Virus record (IMG/VR): IMGVR_UViG_3300029862_000001
Coordinates: 53,276 to 117,275 of that record
DNA length: 64,000 nucleotides
Source: a virus
Taxonomy: Duplodnaviria; Heunggongvirae; Uroviricota; Caudoviricetes
Direction: 5' to 3' (one strand)
Positions 1-64,000 of the stretch are shown here, piece after piece (the first letter of the stretch is position 1; each line of letters starts with the position of its first letter). The notes beneath the pieces were generated by a model that had not been told where the DNA came from, made no database searches, and was given only the letters and a program-made list of their open reading frames with translations. The position numbers and the translations under genes are program-made.

Positions 1-21
1 GGAGAGGGAGGGCACTCTCTT

Positions 22-272
22 CCAACAAGATTAAGACTTACAGCGTTTTAAAACAGTATTCTCTACCAACAAGATTAAGACTTACAGCGTTTTAAAACAG
101 TATTCTGTAGGGTTTACCAACAAAATAAAGTATGATAGCGTTTTAAAACAGTATTCTCTTCCAACAAGATTAAGACTTACAGCGTTTTAAAACATCATTC
201 TCTTCCAACAAAATAAAGTATGATAGCGTTACCAACAAAATAAAGTATGATAGCGTTTTAAAACAGTATTCC
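22..272. repeat. Tandem direct-repeat array (~6 units of 41-44 bp in two alternating subtypes, each carrying the palindrome GTTTTAAAAC)
   Basis: Units at 22-64, 66-106, 117-159, 161-203, 205-230 (partial) and 232-272. Subtype A is ccaacaagattaagacttacagcgttttaaaacagtattct; subtype B is ccaacaaaataaagtatgatagcgttttaaaacagtattct. Units are contiguous with no unique spacers. Confidence 0.85.
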
Positions 273-526: not shown

Positions 527-714
527 GCGGCGCCTTGGGCTAAGGCCTGCGGTTGTAGGTGGAACGTAGGTCGGAGCAGAGCCGGGACAGTTTGTTGTGG
601 AACTAAAAAAAATAAAAAGGAGGAGATAGCGATATGAAAAAAGGCATTTAAGATATTTTCTATTATGTTTGTCATAGAAATAGTGCTGATAGCTATTTTA
701 GATGCTATGGCGTA

Positions 715-841
715 AGTGAGAAAAATTTCTTCATTAATTTTCTTATGCTTTAGACAGAGTGCTCCCGTCTGCGAAGATCGGAGCACTTGCTTTATGGGAT
801 TCATGGTGCGGTAGGTCGGTTCGATTCCGGCGATCTCACAC
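715..841 (+). ncRNA. tRNA-like element (T-arm GGTTCGATTCC plus acceptor-like 3' strand closed by a distal GTGAGA/TCTCAC stem)
   Basis: Canonical T-arm gtcgg-ttcgatt-ccggc at 815-831, then gatctcaca. The 5' partner gtgaga lies at 716-721. A full cloverleaf could not be folded by eye. The 3' ~45 nt are near-identical to the element at 1607-1689. Ends 28 nt before the start codon at 869. Confidence 0.4.
759..786 (+). other. Hairpin with conserved 12-nt loop GTCTGCGAAGAT (7-bp stem gtgctcc/ggagcac)
   Basis: Read directly from sequence. The same loop sequence recurs in the terminator hairpin at 5399-5426 with a different stem. Confidence 0.6.
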
Positions 842-868
842 AACATTAAAAACAAAGGAGGAAAGAAA

Positions 869-1216
869 ATGAAAGATGGTATTACATTACATCCAGAACA
901 CGGATTGAATCCGTCTATAGAAGTCTGCATGATATGTGGCGAAGAGATGGGGATTGCTTTATTAGGGAATAACATCAAGGGGCAGGCGCCGCATCATATA
1001 TGCACGGGAGAGATATGTGACAATTGCAAAAAGATAATAGATGACGGAGGTTGTTTTATTATCGAAGTCGAGGATGGATCAGATCAAAAGAATCCGTATC
1101 GTACAGGGAGATATTGCGCGATAAAGAAAGAGGCAGCAAAGAAAATACTTGGACAGGAACATAGTGTTGTGTACATGGAAAAGTCTGCATACAGTCAAAT
1201 AATACCACAAAAATAA
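869..1216 (+). CDS. hypothetical Cys-rich (CxxC...CxxC) zinc-ribbon protein
   Basis: ATG with strong RBS aaaggaggaaagaaaATG; MICGEE...CDNCKK motifs. Confidence 0.6.
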   Translation: MKDGITLHPEHGLNPSIEVCMICGEEMGIALLGNNIKGQAPHHICTGEICDNCKKIIDDGGCFIIEVEDGSDQKNPYRTGRYCAIKKEAAKKILGQEHSVVYMEKSAYSQIIPQK

Positions 1217-1224
1217 AGAAAGAT

Positions 1225-1548
1225 ATGTTTACAAAAGAAGAGCGATTATTCATTTGGAAAAAGGTATATGAGGAGATCGAAAGGTTAGAGGATGGGGATT
1301 ATATATGCGTCATGTTGAGAAATATAGTATTTAAGTTTTTCAGTACTCCTAAAAAAATAGAATCCATTTATGGGTTATATTTAGATAAACTGGTGAAAAC
1401 ATATTTCCCGGAATTGGAGGAAAAGAAAAGTATGACTACAGAACCAGAAGAAGAATGGAGGATATATGGATGGTTTGGTTGTATTAGTCCAGAAACGAAG
1501 GAGGTGAGGCTAAATATTGTGAAAGATATTATAAAAGAGTTAGAATAG
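1225..1548 (+). CDS. hypothetical protein (107 aa)
   Basis: ATG start; tightly packed after the previous gene. Confidence 0.5.
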   Translation: MFTKEERLFIWKKVYEEIERLEDGDYICVMLRNIVFKFFSTPKKIESIYGLYLDKLVKTYFPELEEKKSMTTEPEEEWRIYGWFGCISPETKEVRLNIVKDIIKELE

Positions 1549-1606
1549 TATTTTTGTTAATCTATTTTATTCATCAAATTAAGTTTTGGGTTTTGGCATG
1601 TCGGTT

Positions 1607-1689
1607 CGTGAGAATAGGCATGTCTATTTCTGTATCATAGAGGGATGGCGAGGCGTGCCGGTCCTGGTTCGATTCCGGGCATCTCACAA
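1607..1689 (+). ncRNA. tRNA-like element, second copy (~82 nt)
   Basis: T-arm cctgg-ttcgatt-ccggg at 1663-1679, then catctcaca; 5' gtgaga at 1608-1613 pairs with tctcac at 1682-1687. The 3' end and downstream leader (atctcacaaacaataaaacaaaagag) are near-identical to the element at 715-841. Precedes the start codon at 1709 by ~20 nt. Confidence 0.4.
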
Positions 1690-1708
1690 ACAATAAAACA
1701 AAAGAGTT

Positions 1709-1942
1709 ATGAGAATATACAAGAATGATATTATAAAGGCGTCAGCGATAAGCACCGGCGATGACAGGGGATTATTACTATGTTCAATAACGGATTCAGG
1801 CTTTACGTCTATAGCTGGTGTAATATCGGCTATTAAAGACAAGTTGCCAGGCAAAGATCATAAGAAGATGATTTTTGAAATACGGAATGATGGAAGAAAC
1901 GAATATGGCAGATATAATAATTGCGGAACAAAAGTATTGTAA
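1709..1942 (+). CDS. hypothetical protein (77 aa)
   Basis: ATG start after the tRNA-like element; no motifs. Confidence 0.4.
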   Translation: MRIYKNDIIKASAISTGDDRGLLLCSITDSGFTSIAGVISAIKDKLPGKDHKKMIFEIRNDGRNEYGRYNNCGTKVL

Positions 1943-1998: not shown

Positions 1999-2028
1999 GG
2001 AGCGCCGGCCTGTGAAGGTATGCGCTCT
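1999..2028. terminator. GC-rich hairpin ggagcgc/gcgctct, T-rich on the + side
   Basis: Stem 1999-2005 / 2022-2028. On + it is followed by tttgtatttatat and could terminate the 1709..1942 gene. On - it lies ~17 nt downstream of the orphan IS right-end copy. Confidence 0.4.
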
Positions 2029-2044
2029 TTGTATTTATATAATG

Positions 2045-2165
2045 CTTGACATACTCCCATCGCTAAAGCAAACGGGATTCTTGGATACAAACGTACGGAA
2101 CCCCCGGTTTTACAATCGTTGGAATCACCCGCACTTTCCAACTCGGAAATGCCCTTCCGAGGTCG
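2045..2165 (-). mobile_element. Orphan IS200/IS605 right-end (omega-RNA scaffold-like) copy with no adjacent tnpB
   Basis: ~120 bp, ~80% identical and co-linear with 63176-63292, which is the 3' end of tnpB plus its right end. Similarity stops at exactly the same point in both copies (cttgacatac...; on the - strand the element ends ...GTATGTCAAG). No surrounding TnpB-like coding sequence. Confidence 0.55.
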
Positions 2166-2252
2166 CAAGACAGGGCAAATATAATGTTTAATTATCATCT
2201 GACACATAAATGGGATCAGTATTACCATTAAATAACATAAAACAATAATAAT

Positions 2253-8831: not shown

Positions 8832-9494
8832 ATGAATAATTTTGTAATAGATACTCCAGATAATTTCTGGCAAATAAGATGGCTTGACAAGTATATGGAA
8901 GGCCACAAAGGATTCATAGCTGGTGGATGTTTTAAAAATATCCTTTCCGGAGAAAGAGTAAAAGACATTGATATTTTCTTTGAAAGTGAAAGCGATTTTC
9001 AGGAGGCTATTGATTCGTTCAATGATGAAAAACATCAGAAAGAAGGATGGAAATTTAAGTACAGAAATGAGAAGGTATGTGCGTTCCAGAAAGAGGGAGA
9101 AAAGGTATGGATAGAGTTCATAGAGTCAGAGTTTGGAAAGCCGAAAGAGATTCTTAGGAGCTTCGATTTTACTGTGACAAAAATGGCTTACTATAAGGAG
9201 CCCAAATACGAAGAAAAAGAAGATGATTATTTTCCATTCTCATCTGCAAGTATAGTAGCATACGAGTACAAACTACTCTATCATGAGAAATTCTTCGAAC
9301 ATCTTCATATGAAGAGGCTGGTTATTGACGAAAATATCCCTTTTCCAGTAAGTACATGGGAGCGCTCATATCGGTATAAAGGATATGGTTACAATATGTG
9401 CCGGGAGACAAAGAAAAAACTTCTACAGGCTATTAAAGGTGTAAACGTAGAGGAGGAAGATGTATCTTTGTACACTACTGGAAGATGGGATTAA
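8832..9494 (+). CDS. putative minimal nucleotidyltransferase (polymerase-beta-like fold)
   Basis: Motif IAGGCFKNILSGERVKDIDIFF matches hG[GS]-x(9-13)-DhDh of the Pol-beta NTase superfamily. Judged by eye only. Confidence 0.45.
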   Translation: MNNFVIDTPDNFWQIRWLDKYMEGHKGFIAGGCFKNILSGERVKDIDIFFESESDFQEAIDSFNDEKHQKEGWKFKYRNEKVCAFQKEGEKVWIEFIESEFGKPKEILRSFDFTVTKMAYYKEPKYEEKEDDYFPFSSASIVAYEYKLLYHEKFFEHLHMKRLVIDENIPFPVSTWERSYRYKGYGYNMCRETKKKLLQAIKGVNVEEEDVSLYTTGRWD

Positions 9495-9952
9495 CCTATA
9501 AAACAAAATTGCTTATGAAAACATTAGAACAACTTAAAGAATTAGCATCAAAATGTTTAGACGGTAGAGATTTTAACAGACTGGCTAAATTTATCCCATA
9601 TAACATGATAAAGGATTTCGATATGGAGCCGAACGAAGAATACAATAACGAAGAAAGGTGGAACAGTACTGTAGTTGAATTTACCAGGGAGAATGTTTTG
9701 AAACAGCTTGAAGAAGATGTAAGATTCGGTTTTGAAAAGGCATTAAATCAGAGAGGAATATCAGCCAGTTTAATGTTTGAATGTGTAATGATGTGGAACT
9801 ACATCCTGGAAGAAGGTCTTGAAGACTGGGATGAGGATGATTATGGATTTTACGGGCTACCTCTATTTAAAGCTACGGCTGTAAAATACGGATGGGATAA
9901 TCCTATAGGGGAAGACAGCGGGAGAGAAAGAAAATATGATTCACAGTATTAA
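9485..9952 (+). CDS. hypothetical acidic protein (155 aa; alternative start at 9515)
   Basis: ATG at 9485 overlaps the upstream stop; no HEPN Rx4-6H motif seen. Confidence 0.45.
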   Translation: MGLTYKTKLLMKTLEQLKELASKCLDGRDFNRLAKFIPYNMIKDFDMEPNEEYNNEERWNSTVVEFTRENVLKQLEEDVRFGFEKALNQRGISASLMFECVMMWNYILEEGLEDWDEDDYGFYGLPLFKATAVKYGWDNPIGEDSGRERKYDSQY

Positions 9953-52914: not shown

Positions 52915-55846
52915 AAATTTTTTGCAAAAAATCGTTCAACTTACTAAACTTGTCATTCATGTTGGGCATGATATTTATTCCTCTCATATACGGATCTCTC
53001 ATCTGATCAAGACGCTCTTGAATAGCCTCCTTCACGTATTTTACAAAGAAGTACTGAGGACACTTCTGGTGAATGCTATTCCAGTAATCCGCATACTCAT
53101 CATTACCAGGATCCAAAGGAACAAAATCCGAGAACAACAATGCAGGATTTTTAGAATTTTTAGTCCTTTTGTCATAGAAATTGACCGCTACCTCTCTCGA
53201 ACCCCTGTCATCCATTCCTTCCAACTGAACTGATATGTTATCAGACATGTCAATAAAATTATCAACAAAGGTTTTAACAACATTCATTTCTTCTGGCTTA
53301 AGGTAAGAACCATGAACCATTACTATATCATAAAGATCATTCTTAACATCAGCCTTAGAAGCCAAACGGGGAAGACCATTACGTATGAGATACTTATCAT
53401 AAGAATAGCCTTCCTTCTTTCCGGTATCTACAAAATCACAGGTTCCAAAACTTGATTTGTAACCATCTACTGGATAATTGCGCTCCTCAACCGAAGGATC
53501 TATACCCGCCTTAAGAAGTTCATCATTCGTGATCTCTACCCTTTTTGTAACATAAGAGTTTTCACCGGACCCTACTTGAGCAGTCAAGAATCTTCTGACA
53601 GTGCCATTATCTATCTCGGCGTCCATATTGATAGTATTAATAGCAGTAGGATCCAGATTATTTACCTTTCCTGCCATGTAACCAGACAATCTTCTAAACT
53701 GAGCCTTCTGCAAAGACTTTTCTGGTGAATCGGCATTCCAATTGTATCTTTTGTAAGAATCAAAGTAATGATACTGAGATAACTTATCAGAAATCTGATC
53801 GGGAGATACAGACATTTTTATCTCATCCTGCATCTGACCCGCTATCATGTCAGACACCCTACTATTTTTCTCAACATATCTTAACTGAGTAATAGTCAAA
53901 GGCTCCCCTTCCTGATAATCTTTTAAATCTATATCACCATCCTTATCTATGGTCATATAATCGGATATATTAAAATCAGGATCGCCATTGAGTTTCTTCA
54001 TTCCATTAATAAGAGCCAACGTGCCAGTAGAAGAACCATTATCCTCGCTTGTAACGGTATCAAATACGCCAGTTGTTATGGCCGTGGCGAGTAGGAAAGC
54101 TCCAGCCTTATCATCCGTATCGGTAAGATTTATAAAAGAATTTCCTTTCATAAACTTAGCATTACGAACTTTCCTGATAATATCCTTATTTTTTTCAGTA
54201 ACTATGTTATCGATTTGATAATCAGTTATGTTATTTATAGCCTTTGTGGCTCCGTTTGCCTTAGAATCAGAAAGAAGTAAAGCATCATAAGCTTCAGATA
54301 ATCTGTTATTTCCTTGTCCGAAATATCCGTTTTTCTGACCTCCATTGTTTTTTAAATAAGAATATATCCGCTCTTCAGGAGTCATATTAGCATACAATCC
54401 TGGATCAGTTTTTTCTTCTTCGTATGATGCTGCAACGATATTGTTTCTATCTGTAGGAGATAATGAATTATACAATTTCAATAAATTGGCTTTACGATCT
54501 GTAGAATGAGATTTAAGTAACTCATAAGGAATATCAGCCAAGTTAATAGATCCTGTCTTACCCGTTCCAGAGTTAATAGCCGTAGGCCCGTCCATAGGAG
54601 CCATCGGTACTCCCATACCGTCTGCGTCTGTCGTGCCTGCGGATGAGCTTTCAGTTCCCATCTTGGAGCCGTAAGTGCGCATGTACTCGGTTTCAATCTT
54701 AGCCTGAGCAAGTTGCTCTTTTGCCAACGATATTTCAACCATAGACTTAGCATTGTCAGTCAAAAACTTTTGCTGAGCCCTATCCTCTGCCAACCTTGCA
54801 AAATAAAGATCGTCTTTCTTCCTTTCAAAACTTGTATTGTCGTATCTCCATACATCAGTCATCTTATCGAAAAGATTATTAGTAACAACAAAATTAGCAG
54901 CCGCTACCGGATCAGACGAAGCTATTATCATATCTGCCTTCCTCTTGGCTTCTGCTTTCTGATTTTTAGCTTCCTGTATCTGGCTGTCAATACGATCAAT
55001 AATATCTTTATTATCCCCCACTGATTTCTTTTTTGCTTCCAATGCTCCTATGTGCCTATCGTATCTTTCGACATAAGACCCAATGTATTGACTAACCAAA
55101 TCCGGATTACTGAACACCGGATTGGTGGCTGCCATGTACGATGCTTCTATTCTCATCTGATTCCTCATGTTTTCAGATAAGTTAGCAGACACAAAATTCC
55201 TTATCTGGGAATCTGTAAGTTCATCTACATTAACTTCTATAATACCACCAGTAGGATTACCTTTAACATCATATTCTGTTGTCTGAATCTTCTTGCCTTC
55301 GTTATTTTTCCTAAAGTCACTAACCAGCTTATTTATCTCCTTAGTATAATCGACATAAGGAGAATAATGAAGACCTCCTAACCTTGATCCTGCTTTACCA
55401 TCTGACCTCCATTTGTAATAAGGATCCAAAGCATGCCATTCATTAATAGGAGAATAAAGTTCAGGATGATTCTGTTTTATAGATTCTATTTCCTTCATAA
55501 CCCTCTTGCCTTCTTTTGTGCCGGCAATCGCGTTAATGACCGTATCGTCCAGCACCGAGCTAATCTCTCCTTGTATGGCTCTCGTAACTCCATCAGAAGA
55601 AAGATCCACGCCTTTAAATTTTTGATTGATGTTAGCAATCACACCTGACATCTTATCCTCCATATAAGCTCGGGCTTCAGGCTTATCTATCTCTTGACCC
55701 ATAAGATAATCTACCTGGGTATAGATCTTTTCACGAGCAGCATCAACCTTCTGCTGTTTGTACATCATGACGTCCTTAACAAGATCTATGTTGTAAGGAC
55801 TAACATACGGGGCATATTGCCTTAAAATACTATACTGTGAAGCCAC
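52907..55846 (-). CDS. large structural protein (979 aa)
   Basis: GTG start at 55846 with strong SD aaggaggaccaaataGTG; overlaps the next gene by 8 nt. Confidence 0.7.
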   Translation of the reverse strand: MASQYSILRQYAPYVSPYNIDLVKDVMMYKQQKVDAAREKIYTQVDYLMGQEIDKPEARAYMEDKMSGVIANINQKFKGVDLSSDGVTRAIQGEISSVLDDTVINAIAGTKEGKRVMKEIESIKQNHPELYSPINEWHALDPYYKWRSDGKAGSRLGGLHYSPYVDYTKEINKLVSDFRKNNEGKKIQTTEYDVKGNPTGGIIEVNVDELTDSQIRNFVSANLSENMRNQMRIEASYMAATNPVFSNPDLVSQYIGSYVERYDRHIGALEAKKKSVGDNKDIIDRIDSQIQEAKNQKAEAKRKADMIIASSDPVAAANFVVTNNLFDKMTDVWRYDNTSFERKKDDLYFARLAEDRAQQKFLTDNAKSMVEISLAKEQLAQAKIETEYMRTYGSKMGTESSSAGTTDADGMGVPMAPMDGPTAINSGTGKTGSINLADIPYELLKSHSTDRKANLLKLYNSLSPTDRNNIVAASYEEEKTDPGLYANMTPEERIYSYLKNNGGQKNGYFGQGNNRLSEAYDALLLSDSKANGATKAINNITDYQIDNIVTEKNKDIIRKVRNAKFMKGNSFINLTDTDDKAGAFLLATAITTGVFDTVTSEDNGSSTGTLALINGMKKLNGDPDFNISDYMTIDKDGDIDLKDYQEGEPLTITQLRYVEKNSRVSDMIAGQMQDEIKMSVSPDQISDKLSQYHYFDSYKRYNWNADSPEKSLQKAQFRRLSGYMAGKVNNLDPTAINTINMDAEIDNGTVRRFLTAQVGSGENSYVTKRVEITNDELLKAGIDPSVEERNYPVDGYKSSFGTCDFVDTGKKEGYSYDKYLIRNGLPRLASKADVKNDLYDIVMVHGSYLKPEEMNVVKTFVDNFIDMSDNISVQLEGMDDRGSREVAVNFYDKRTKNSKNPALLFSDFVPLDPGNDEYADYWNSIHQKCPQYFFVKYVKEAIQERLDQMRDPYMRGINIMPNMNDKFSKLNDFLQKIYG

Positions 55847-63098: not shown

Positions 63099-63175
63099 AT
63101 CAGATAGTGAATGAAATAAGAAACATATTTCTTTCCTGTGATTGGTTCGGTTTCCTACGAAAATAGTCCTGCCAC

Positions 63176-64000
63176 CTTGACATACTCCCATAGCTAAAGC
63201 AAATGGGATTCTTGGATACAAACGTATGGAACCCCGGTATTTCTATCGCTGGAATTACCCATACTCTCCAATTCGGAAATGCCCTTCCGAAGTATATTAC
63301 GGGCTGCAAGAACATCACGGTCGTTAATTGCGCCGCACGCCGGGCACACCCACGTGCGGTCGCGTAACGACAATCCTTTATTAATGCAGCCACATTCGCA
63401 AGTTTTGGAAGAAGGATACCATTTGTCAATCTTGTGTACTATCACTCCATACTTTGAAGCAACATACATTAGCTTATCAATAAAAGAAGAATGGCTAAGA
63501 TCAGAAACCTTCTTTCCCCACAAACGCTTCATTCCTTCAATGTTTAAATCTTCAATAAAAATATAATCATATTGTTTGCATAACTGGTGTGCTAATCCCC
63601 ATTGAAAATCCGATCGAAGATCTTTTATTTTACGATATGCTTGTTGGAGTTCAAACAGTCTCCTTCTTCTATTGTTGGATCCTTTCTTTGCATTAGAAAA
63701 CCGTTTGTTTAGTTTTCTAATCTTGTTTTGATATCGTTTGAAGAATAGTGGAGAATCGATTTTGCTACCATCGCTTTTAGTTAGATAAGTTTTCAGCCCA
63801 AAATCCAATCCGATAGATGCACCATCATGTGTCTTTCTATAAGAGTTTGAAGGATTATGGTCTGTAACTATAATCAAACTAAAACGTGAACAGGTTTCTC
63901 TAACTATTCTAATTTGTTTAACATTACCTTCATAAGGTCTACTGTATGAGAATCTAAATCGTTTCTTTCCTTTGTTAATTGTTAGAAAATTACCATTCAG
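63176..64000 (-). mobile_element. IS200/IS605-family element right end with tnpB (runs past the window edge)
   Basis: tnpB coding sequence plus ~18 bp beyond its stop; the terminus ...GTATGTCAAG (- strand) matches the TCAA-type right-end cleavage motif of this family; the boundary is defined by comparison with the orphan copy at 2045. Confidence 0.65.
63194..64000 (-). CDS. tnpB: TnpB (IS605 OrfB) RNA-guided nuclease, C-terminal ~270 aa (N-terminus outside the window)
   Basis: RuvC-I GASIGLDFGLKTY, RuvC-II YIFIEDLNIEGM, zinc finger CECG...CPACG, RuvC-III NDRDVLAARNI; the frame is open from 63877 up to position 64000 with no stop. Confidence 0.75.
   Translation of the reverse strand: MNGNFLTINKGKKRFRFSYSRPYEGNVKQIRIVRETCSRFSLIIVTDHNPSNSYRKTHDGASIGLDFGLKTYLTKSDGSKIDSPLFFKRYQNKIRKLNKRFSNAKKGSNNRRRRLFELQQAYRKIKDLRSDFQWGLAHQLCKQYDYIFIEDLNIEGMKRLWGKKVSDLSHSSFIDKLMYVASKYGVIVHKIDKWYPSSKTCECGCINKGLSLRDRTWVCPACGAINDRDVLAARNILRKGISELESMGNSSDRNTGVPYVCIQESHLL

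Follow-up and report, generated by a model that had tools for sequence, protein, structure and literature searches.

Why should two tRNA-like sequences stand, each a short distance ahead of a start codon, among the early genes of a gut phage? The stretch of DNA that raises this question, here called the window, comprises 64,000 nucleotides (nt) of IMG/VR virus record IMGVR_UViG_3300029862_000001 (positions 53,276 to 117,275; Caudoviricetes), and the sequences concerned are two elements near its left-hand end, el1 and el2. The first 8 kb of the window align over 81% of their length, at 92% identity, with csAssE-Sib (OR575929.1), a phage from the human gut with a genome of 151 kb, about 200 genes and 206 annotated features; the csAssE-Sib group includes more than 170 IMG/VR contigs of 80-150 kb. 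A block of the plus strand carries small early genes together with replication genes (primase, DnaB, a PD-(D/E)XK nuclease and a helicase), and a block of the minus strand encodes giant virion proteins. We found no mention of the elements in the csAssE-Sib record or in the searchable literature, where no paper turned up on csAssE-Sib or on tRNA-like elements of crAss-like phages.

Two elements with a shared 3′ half

The sequence GGTTCGATTCCGG is found at exactly two sites when both strands of the window are searched (818-830 and 1666-1678; 0.08 expected), and none of 100 shuffled windows contained two copies. On the 3′ side of each copy there follow two variable bases (CG or GC), then ATCTCACA, and then an A-rich leader (ACAACATTAAAAACAAAGGAG or AAACAATAAAACAAAAGAG). 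An earlier note on this DNA, made from the letters alone, had described two tRNA-like elements with near-identical 3′ halves, each composed of a T-arm, an acceptor-like strand and an A-rich leader and placed about 25 nt before a gene start. This description was accurate: the repeat is exact and occurs nowhere else in the window, and the distance to the start codon is 29 nt for el1 (from C839 to the ATG at 869) and 21 nt for el2 (from C1687 to the ATG at 1709). Both elements are intergenic, their sense strand is the strand of all flanking open reading frames (ORFs), and both carry a T-arm motif of the GGTTCRANYCC type (GGTTCGATTCC) outside any canonical tRNA.

The core of each element can be drawn as a minihelix on the plus strand. 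In el1 (795-839) the acceptor strand UGGGAUU (795-801) pairs with GAUCUCA (832-838) at seven of seven positions and directly abuts the T-arm (815-831), which consists of the T-stem strands GUCGG (815-819) and CCGGC (827-831) around the T-loop UUCGAUU (820-826); a linker of 13 nt (802-814) separates the 5′ acceptor strand from the T-arm, and C839 occupies the discriminator position. In el2 (1641-1687) the strands AGGGAUG (1641-1647) and CAUCUCA (1680-1686) form six of seven pairs, A1.A72 being open, and the T-arm (1663-1679) is made of CCUGG (1663-1667), UUCGAUU (1668-1674) and CCGGG (1675-1679), followed by C1687. The linker of el2 measures 15 nt (1648-1662), as compared with 29 nt in relatives: most of these possess an extra 14 nt (CCGGUGCGUAUGUGCCGG) that form a 7-bp hairpin just 5′ of the T-arm, and it is this hairpin that has been lost, between CCGGT repeats, from the window copy and from one relative (L039).

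Each minihelix is preceded by a hairpin that appears in the minimum free energy folds. That of el1 (757-788, plus strand) has a 9-bp outer and a 4-bp inner stem closed by the GNRA loop GCGA (771-774); that of el2 (1595-1624, plus strand) has the outer stem GGCAUGUC / GGCAUGUC, the inner stem GUUC/GAAU and the GNRA loop GUGA (1608-1611). A hairpin with a conserved loop had been noted earlier as a peculiarity of the first copy; the hairpin is there, but it is not peculiar to that copy, as both elements have one. Among 57 haplotypes of el1 individual pairs of the hairpin are found as AU 33, GC 17 and GU 6, as UA 52 and CG 4, as CG 56 and AU 1, and as GU 39 and AU 18. The variation in the el2 hairpin is entirely pair-preserving (G-C/G.U, 32:19; U.G/U-A, 46:5).

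On the other side of each minihelix comes a conserved trailer of 12-13 nt, rich in A and U, and homology with alternative downstream genes stops exactly past it. The el1 trailer, ACAACAUUAAAA (840-851, plus strand), is counted here as part of the element: relatives agree through ..TTAAAA and then split into ACAAAGGAGG.., TAGGGAAGAAC.. or CATAATTATATGG... The el2 trailer is AAACAAUAAAACA (1688-1700, plus strand), and the breakpoint right behind it leads either to AAAGAGTTATGAG.., as in the window, or to TAATTATATGGAAG.., which introduces an additional gene of 141 amino acids (aa). In the window, el1 is followed by an ORF of 115 aa (869-1216, plus strand; CxxC zinc-ribbon-like, phrog_11852, of unknown function) and el2 by one of 77 aa with no family match (1709-1942, plus strand). 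csAssE-Sib has one extra gene behind el1, encoding 134 aa and inserted ahead of the 115-aa ORF, and another behind el2, and further variants are found in other genomes: the downstream gene is swapped, inserted or deleted between genomes while the element stays. In one relative (L046) recombination between el1 and el2, through the 3′ halves that they share, has deleted the two intervening genes.

Comparative evidence for the minihelix

Copies of the elements were gathered by means of anchors that do not constrain the elements themselves, namely flanking sequence and the downstream protein. This yielded 187 copies of el1 (57 haplotypes) and 178 of el2 (51 haplotypes), together about 365, all from the csAssE-Sib group. 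A search of INPHARED for homologous DNA returned csAssE-Sib as the sole match, and relatives sought through the downstream 115-aa protein, or through an alignment of a Gad2-family protein discussed below, were without exception phages of 93-100% identity.

Among 15 distinct haplotypes of el1, 98.9% of helix cells are paired, as against 38-57% in slid registers. There is hardly any change in the T-loop or in either acceptor strand; the linker is hypervariable, positions 809-814 being the most polymorphic stretch of the whole region. Changes within the helices tend to come in forms that keep the pair. G52-C62 (tRNA numbering) is replaced by A-U, with the A.C intermediate also seen, and U.G/C-G swaps occur in the T-stem. 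In one haplotype (a36) three bases of the 3′ strand are changed – G66A together with a CU-to-UC swap facing G4 and G3 – without the loss of any of the three pairs, and a haplotype of el2 (b12) shows a true compensation of G4-C69 to A-U.

A scan of the complete csAssE-Sib genome revealed a third paralogue, el0, which shares the strand of el1 and lies about 1.9 kb upstream of it, and thus about 1.1 kb before the start of the window (OR575929.1, our L421, minus strand of the record, ~577-508, or ~640-480 with flanks). It consists of UGGUUGU, a 32-nt middle arm, UCCGG-UUCGAUU-CCGGA, GCAACCU and C, followed by an A/U-rich trailer and, at 23 nt, an ATG; an annotated coding sequence of csAssE-Sib (556-843) terminates inside it. 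In 100 copies (21 haplotypes) the T-stem of el0 has undergone two different C-G to U-A compensations, changes in the T-loop fall almost entirely at positions 59/60, and one pair of the upstream hairpin (GCCUGUAC..UACGGGC) occurs as U-A, C-G, A-U and U.G. The three paralogues thus share a common context: a covarying hairpin, a spacer of 2-16 nt, the minihelix, the A/U-rich trailer, and an ATG at 21, 23 or 29 nt.

A fourth type comes from an unrelated temperate prophage of Bacteroidota type (L329, a contig of Logan SRR26188331, region 9690-9770). This element (9721-9766) reads GGGGAGA, 14 nt, UGUGG-UUCGAUU-CCACA, CUUCUCU and C, with G3.U70; its sequence is divergent, a small hairpin precedes it, and a Gad2-family gene follows 235 nt downstream. 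An element of the same type is present in a second contig (L330, 8520-8600), and an IMG/VR search for further examples of this type matched only unrelated tRNA-like sequences.

When 37 distinct versions of el0, el1, el2 and the prophage element are aligned, 92.3% of helix cells are paired, compared with 74.8% after shuffling and 35-59% in slid controls. Both sides of the pair have changed in nine of the 12 pairs, and the observed covariation score was reached by none of 500 shuffles, although these shuffle statistics are inflated because the copies represent one closely related group plus one outlier. Near-invariant features are G2-C71, G53-C61 and the C at position 73. In the T-loop U54, U55, C56 and A58 are almost fixed, with recurrent changes at 57 (G to A) and 59/60, and the T-stem switches from C-G to U-A and from G-C to A-U.

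These comparisons bear upon which of two folds is the relevant one. The earlier note had each element closed by a distal pairing of GTGAGA with TCTCAC, and the complementarity does exist in both copies: in el1 GTGAGA lies at 716-721 (plus strand), directly past the stop codon of a small upstream ORF, and is complementary to UCUCAC at 834-839; in el2 it corresponds to 1608-1613, of which GUGA is the apical GNRA loop of the hairpin at 1595-1624. The distal and proximal folds are near-isoenergetic for both elements, and the choice between them is therefore decided by comparative data only. The distal strand of el1 is lost or broken in three haplotypes (a30, which has GTAATA, a54 and a36) in which the proximal helix remains; the a36 and b12 changes described above both break the GUGAGA/UCUCAC helix; one relative (L013) has lost all sequence 5′ of the el2 minihelix, the distal strand included, with the minihelix spared; and one G-to-A variant of el2 keeps the hairpin at 1595-1624 but disrupts the B:C helix, the alternative on which the distal fold depends. 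On these grounds the distal closing helix and the long B:C hairpin of el2 were rejected: the pairing exists but evolution has not kept it, and GTGAGA at 716-721 is probably not a functional closing strand. Only the minihelix is common to the paralogues. Judged by its pattern of substitution, the conserved unit is a tRNA minihelix: a T-arm stacked coaxially on an acceptor-like stem of 6-7 bp, 12 positions in all as in a tRNA, with no D-arm and no anticodon arm.

The G.U pairs occur only in the sense of the plus strand, which is the sense of all neighbouring genes. Selection therefore acts on the plus-strand RNA, and a DNA-level site was rejected on the same ground. A coding explanation (ORFs 716-814 and 759-872) also fails, as the covarying substitutions are non-synonymous in those frames. 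The comparisons thus show selection on the structure of the plus-strand RNA, and a fixed position between ORFs of the same strand.

Other tRNA-like pieces were encountered in viral contigs unrelated to this phage. Among these pieces (L294, ~10382, minus strand, and contigs L423-L430) one is a perfect minihelix, GGAGAUU-AUU-AAUGG-UUCGAUU-CCAUU-AAUCUCC-A, and another is a tRNA-like sequence of about 100 nt, interrupted by a long insertion (GGAGAAUGUAGCG...GGUUCGAUUCCACUCUUCUCC) and passed over by ARAGORN. The general background of orphan T-arms elsewhere in viral DNA is dominated by tmRNA-like 3′ ends.

Known RNA classes and possible functions

Do the elements belong to a known class? In its default mode ARAGORN reported no tRNA or transfer-messenger RNA (tmRNA) in the window, its intron modes (-i, -io) likewise reported none, and at score thresholds of 70-80% it gave only mutually inconsistent junk calls; the earlier view that neither element folds into a canonical cloverleaf agrees with this outcome. 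Rfam 15 at gathering thresholds gave no match across the whole window, and at E<=10 around the elements it gave only a 7.1-bit fragment of the tmRNA model covering the T-loop (47 needed), and no tRNA. The same tools (ARAGORN/Rfam) call six ordinary tRNAs in the phage group: Met, Gln, Arg, Cys, Tyr and Lys. CCA is encoded in none of the four of these that were read in sequence (Met, Gln, Arg and Cys) and is likewise not encoded in el1 or el2; tRNA-Cys, the last genuine tRNA of its cluster, has an ATG 18 nt downstream.

That the elements might be functional but aberrant tRNAs – suppressors or intron-containing, as the earlier note had considered – or attachment (att) sites derived from the 3′ end of a host tRNA has some appeal. 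Both elements have the T-arm of a canonical tRNA (5-bp stem, 7-nt UUCRANN loop, G53-C61 closure) and an acceptor-like 3′ strand, and crAss-like phages are known for suppressor tRNAs. There is, however, no D-arm and no anticodon stem with a 7-nt loop, the linkers measure 13-15 nt, ARAGORN with introns and the Rfam tRNA and tmRNA models are negative, and the window's large ORFs, read in genetic code 11, are intact. As to att sites, the pattern GGTTCGATTCYGGNNATYTCAC has five matches in 185,579 species genomes, none of which is called as a tRNA gene (one is the same phage mis-binned as Veillonella), and there is no integrase among the 206 annotated features of csAssE-Sib. The suppressor or intron-containing tRNA and the duplicated att-like fragment were accordingly both discarded, and we give this explanation scarcely any credence.

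The resemblance to tmRNA and tRNA-Ala is closer: the acceptor (G)GGGAUG / CAUCUC, G2-C71, G3.U70, G4-C69 and the UUCGAUU T-loop are common to them and the elements. G3.U70 is present in el1 and el2 (GU in 21 of 25 haplotypes); several haplotypes have G-C or A-U in its place, and in el0 the pair is G3-C70. The elements differ in having A or U at position 72 and C rather than A at position 73, and in lacking an encoded CCA, an mRNA-like domain, pseudoknots and a tag ORF; a linker of 13-29 nt is too short for the mRNA-like domain, and a tmRNA was rejected. So too was a permuted tmRNA proposed by ARAGORN at the 70% threshold (tag EKNFFINFLML): it has no pseudoknots, and an indel shifts its frame in relatives. 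The pattern GGTTCGATTC.....ATCTCCA in viral contigs marks mostly tmRNA-like 3′ ends, as judged by eye, plus tRNA-Ala, and an ancestry of the elements in tmRNA or tRNA-Ala is plausible.

A third class, YrlA (RF02553), is like the elements a tRNA mimic with a canonical T-arm that is not a tRNA, and csAssE-Sib encodes Ro60. YrlA differs in the permuted order of its parts (T-arm, closed acceptor stem-loop, D-arm), in a 5′ Ro-binding motif (GNCGAAN0-1G), and in its place on the strand of rsr and no more than 4 kb from it; el1 and el2 have neither Ro motif nor D-arm, and their acceptor stem is open. They have no YrlA match in Rfam at E<=10, and neither the defining motif nor the module order of a Y RNA. 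The nearest approach to the motif, UGCGAAG in the hairpin loop of el1, does not conform to it and varies, and the Ro60 gene rsr lies ~75 kb from el1 and el2 in csAssE-Sib, where a YrlA-like match represents a different locus. A Y RNA was therefore rejected. A scan for sigma-70 promoters and intrinsic terminators found nothing specific. Taken together, these results define the elements as a real, tRNA-derived structural family that exists at the RNA level and is missed by standard tools: they are not tRNA, tmRNA, Y RNA or att sites.

What, then, might they do? RNase P, RNase Z and the CCA-adding enzyme all have the acceptor/T-arm minihelix as their minimal substrate. We tentatively propose that el0, el1 and el2 are cis-acting, tRNA-like punctuation signals for RNase P and RNase Z in rightward early polycistronic transcripts; of the possibilities raised in the earlier note this is the one that fits the anatomy best, and it is from anatomy that we infer cleavage, the enzymes and any effect on mRNA stability or expression. 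RNase P would cut at the 5′ edge of the minihelix, and the upstream mRNA would then end in the conserved GNRA-capped hairpin, which may shield it against 3′ exonucleases. A second cut, made by RNase Z or of the RNase E type within the A/U-rich trailer, would fall past the C at the discriminator position, so that the downstream mRNA's 5′ end would be formed about 21-29 nt before the start codon and a tRNA-like by-product of 45-60 nt would be set free. Action in cis seems most likely because the element stands between cistrons of the same strand, behind a protective hairpin and at a fixed short distance from a start codon. That the minihelix is retained where the downstream gene has been exchanged, and in the relative with the 5′ deletion of el2, also favours punctuation.

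The logic has precedents. In mammalian MALAT1 and MEN-beta a stabiliser stands upstream of a tRNA-like element, RNase P makes the 3′ end, and RNase Z and the CCA enzyme process mascRNA; the order of stabiliser and tRNA-like element is the same here, but this is analogy and not homology, since that system is eukaryotic and nuclear, its stabiliser is a triple helix where the phage has a GNRA hairpin, and mascRNA forms a complete small cloverleaf. The RNase III sites of T7 early mRNA are structured intercistronic signals that leave the upstream message with a protective hairpin at its 3′ end, and the PeSLs of T4-type phages are short repeated regulatory elements that border variable early genes and promote modular shuffling, as the repeats of el1 and el2 do in the recombinant described above. 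These are plain hairpins cut by RNase III, or a promoter plus stem-loop, and not tRNA mimics, and a different nuclease is implied for the elements. The t-elements of plant mitochondria were found through a GGTTCRANYCC motif and an acceptor-like stem outside true tRNAs; they are cut by RNase P and RNase Z, set 5′ and 3′ ends of mRNAs, and can gain non-encoded C/A residues (Forner et al. 2007, PMC1920247). Like them, el1 and el2 combine a T-arm motif and an acceptor-like stem inside an mRNA precursor, beside coding regions. The t-elements differ in being organellar and mostly degenerate cloverleaves of ~74 nt, compared with a minihelix of 45-64 nt in the phage, which in addition has an upstream covarying hairpin and a start codon at 21-29 nt; moreover the processing of t-elements has been mapped experimentally, whereas the phage elements are known as sequence. 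In the tRNA-like domain of Y RNA a 7-bp acceptor stem is a major determinant for RNase P (PMC4201824), and YrlA of M. smegmatis, which has such a stem, is cut by RNase P and gains CCA (Chen et al. 2014, PMC4201824). The elements would on this proposal be a phage variant of a kind of tRNA-like processing element already known elsewhere.

Several observations weigh against punctuation. The ~365 copies derive from a single closely related phage group (protein identity 94-100%), a kinship that also inflates the shuffle statistics given above. The scan of the 151-kb genome, with its roughly 200 genes, found only three elements, which are therefore not a general means of punctuation. Pair 1-72 is open in 26 of the 37 versions, unlike an ideal RNase P substrate. 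Decayed copies exist – a T-arm deletion (b48), an A.G in the T-stem (b5), and el2 of the window without its extra hairpin – and individual copies therefore look dispensable. Nor does the proposal explain an AU-rich block of el1 (722-756, plus strand) that is almost invariant, with per-column diversity near zero over 103 copies, unlike the highly polymorphic sequence upstream of ~600; this block is not conserved as coding sequence, because an indel (A5T3 as against ..GATTTT) shifts every frame. Finally, the folding energies of the elements are ordinary (z -2.6 to +0.15, the minimal elements not being significant), and a loose structural scan for T-arm plus acceptor has a random expectation of 1.24 per 64-kb window; the case therefore rests on the exact repeat and the comparative data.

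Could the minihelices instead be wanted as free molecules? Released or separately made RNAs with an acceptor of Ala/tmRNA type might act in trans as small tRNA mimics, titrating or decoying host factors that recognise the acceptor end (the CCA-adding enzyme, alanyl-tRNA synthetase, EF-Tu/SmpB or defence toxins that attack acceptor ends), or serve as substrate of the phage's own CCA-enzyme-like nucleotidyltransferase. This enzyme, of 220 aa and belonging to the Gad2 family (PF26128; motif GGCFKNILSGERVKDIDIFF), is encoded at 8832-9494 on the plus strand, about 8 kb downstream of the elements, and is 96% identical to a protein of csAssE-Sib that carries the annotation 'polyA polymerase/CCA-adding enzyme'. 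The fold predicted for it (pLDDT 76) comes nearest to tRNA A-/CCA-adding enzymes (Foldseek E 7e-5, TM 0.43) and to poly(A) polymerase, but lacks the body and tail domains. Nucleotidyltransferase activity is predicted for Gad2, whose mechanism is not established (bioRxiv 10.1101/2023.05.01.538930). Action in trans would suit the (G)GGGAU.. / ..AUCUC acceptors with G3.U70 of el1, el2 and the prophage element, as in tRNA-Ala and tmRNA, the near-invariance across paralogues of G2-C71 and of the C at the discriminator position, the presence of Pnkp and Ro60 genes and a weak YrlA-like match in the same phage, and the independent minihelix that an unrelated prophage carries 235 nt ahead of a Gad2 gene. 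A trans-acting RNA has, on the other hand, no need of a fixed 21-29 nt to a start codon or of an upstream hairpin; G3.U70 is moreover exchanged for G-C or A-U in several haplotypes and for G3-C70 in el0, and no promoter or terminator of its own is evident in the scan described above. Of eight Gad2 lineages, one (L329/L330) has the element and the seven others examined have no T-arm element near Gad2; there is therefore no general linkage of minihelix and Gad2, and such linkage was rejected as a rule. We consider a role in trans somewhat unlikely, and very unlikely its further extension, in which the elements would be the first of a class of stand-alone phage minihelix RNAs with an Ala/tmRNA-type acceptor, excised from early transcripts by tRNA-processing enzymes of the host, then extended or used by the Gad2-family enzyme, and acting in trans as decoys or substrates by which host factors or defence toxins aimed at tRNA acceptor ends would be neutralised.

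The minihelix might also work in cis without being cleaved, as a stabiliser, an exonuclease block, a pause site for polymerase or ribosome, or, with the preceding hairpin, a leaky terminator or attenuator. Its constant position just upstream of ribosome-binding regions, the hairpin and U-rich stretch (GCUUUAU, UAUUUCU, GUUGGUUGU) ahead of each element and the two near-isoenergetic folds of el1 and el2 would all accord with this; but a generic stabiliser gives no reason for a canonical GGUUCGAUUCC T-loop with U54, U55, C56 and A58 conserved, the hairpins do not qualify as terminators, the distal alternative fold is not conserved, and the interchangeability of the downstream gene argues against gene-specific regulation. 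Such a role appears rather unlikely. So, to a still greater degree, does the view that the elements are functionless, decaying remnants of a tRNA-Ala or tmRNA-like gene, kept by kinship among the phages and of importance only as repeats that drive recombination and cassette turnover. The Ala/tmRNA-like acceptor would be expected of remnants, as would the 14 nt missing from el2 of the window, the loss of half the T-arm in b48, a tandem duplication (L065), the el1/el2 recombination that deleted two genes, and the clustering of gene indels right behind the elements. Decay does not, however, account for stem substitutions that by manual tally preserve pairing in ~20 events and break it in ~5, with several true double compensations, nor for a 13-nt linker saturated with changes beside an almost fixed T-loop, nor for three paralogues with completely diverged acceptors (GGGAUU, GGGAUG, GGUUGU) that keep the same architecture and distance to the ATG.

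Neighbouring features and wider meaning

The remainder of the region holds a number of features of separate interest. The tiny hydrophobic ORF upstream of el1 (635-715, plus strand; MKKAFKIFSIMFVIEIVLIAILDAMA in relatives) ends exactly where el1 starts. In the window an A-run within it has A7 as against A6, which shifts the frame past five codons; the extra A could stem from a sequencing error, a genuine mutation or slippage. Behind the 77-aa ORF that follows el2 stands a strong GC-rich hairpin (GGAGCGCCGGCC..GCGCTCTTTGTATTT; 1999-2030, plus strand), terminator-like and kept in csAssE-Sib. Next to it is a polymorphic insertion of ~220 nt (2030-2250, plus strand), present in about 20 relatives and absent from csAssE-Sib, whose core (2045-2163) is 88% identical to 63176-63293, the 3′ end of a TnpB gene. 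By its sequence the insertion looks like a solo end of an IS605-family element or an omega-RNA-like remnant. The TnpB gene itself (63100-64000, minus strand; Pfam OrfB_IS605 5.6e-18, Cas12f1-like_TNB 1e-19) runs off the end of the window; it sits just beyond a homologue of tail lysozyme, and the equivalent stretch of csAssE-Sib leads up to the Ro60 gene.

At the extreme left-hand end (19-271, plus strand) are six tandem copies of a repeat with a period of about 44 nt (..CCAACAAGATTAAGACTTACAGCGTTTTAAAACAGTATTC..). The 20-mer core occurs five times in this array and nowhere else in the window (0.05 expected), and there is a similar array near the end of the csAssE-Sib record; early promoters, an origin or a terminal-repeat region are possible identities. 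Outside the window, csAssE-Sib encodes Ro60/Rsr, a polynucleotide kinase/3′-phosphatase and an NrnA-like phosphodiesterase (L422 22571-24725 and L421 2615-4409), which together are a toolkit for RNA repair and surveillance. Upstream of the Ro60 gene are a weak YrlA-like match (28.5 bits, E 0.003; gathering threshold 69) and two tRNAs with imperfect acceptor stems.

Were a role of the minihelices as partners of Gad2-family enzymes to prove correct, the anti-Gabija nucleotidyltransferase family would gain an RNA partner. The consequences of punctuation, the account that we favour, are broader. To our knowledge, and according to our literature searches, the punctuation of RNA by tRNA mimics has been described in organelles and in a few eukaryotic long non-coding RNAs but not in phages. 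If el0, el1 and el2 are cut by RNase P and RNase Z, then a very abundant lineage of human-gut phages punctuates its early polycistronic RNA by tRNA mimicry. This would explain conserved intergenic blocks that standard annotation leaves empty, and would provide a minimal natural substrate, of 45 nt, for the tRNA-end enzymes of Bacteroidota; the elements would, in addition, mark hot spots of early-gene exchange.

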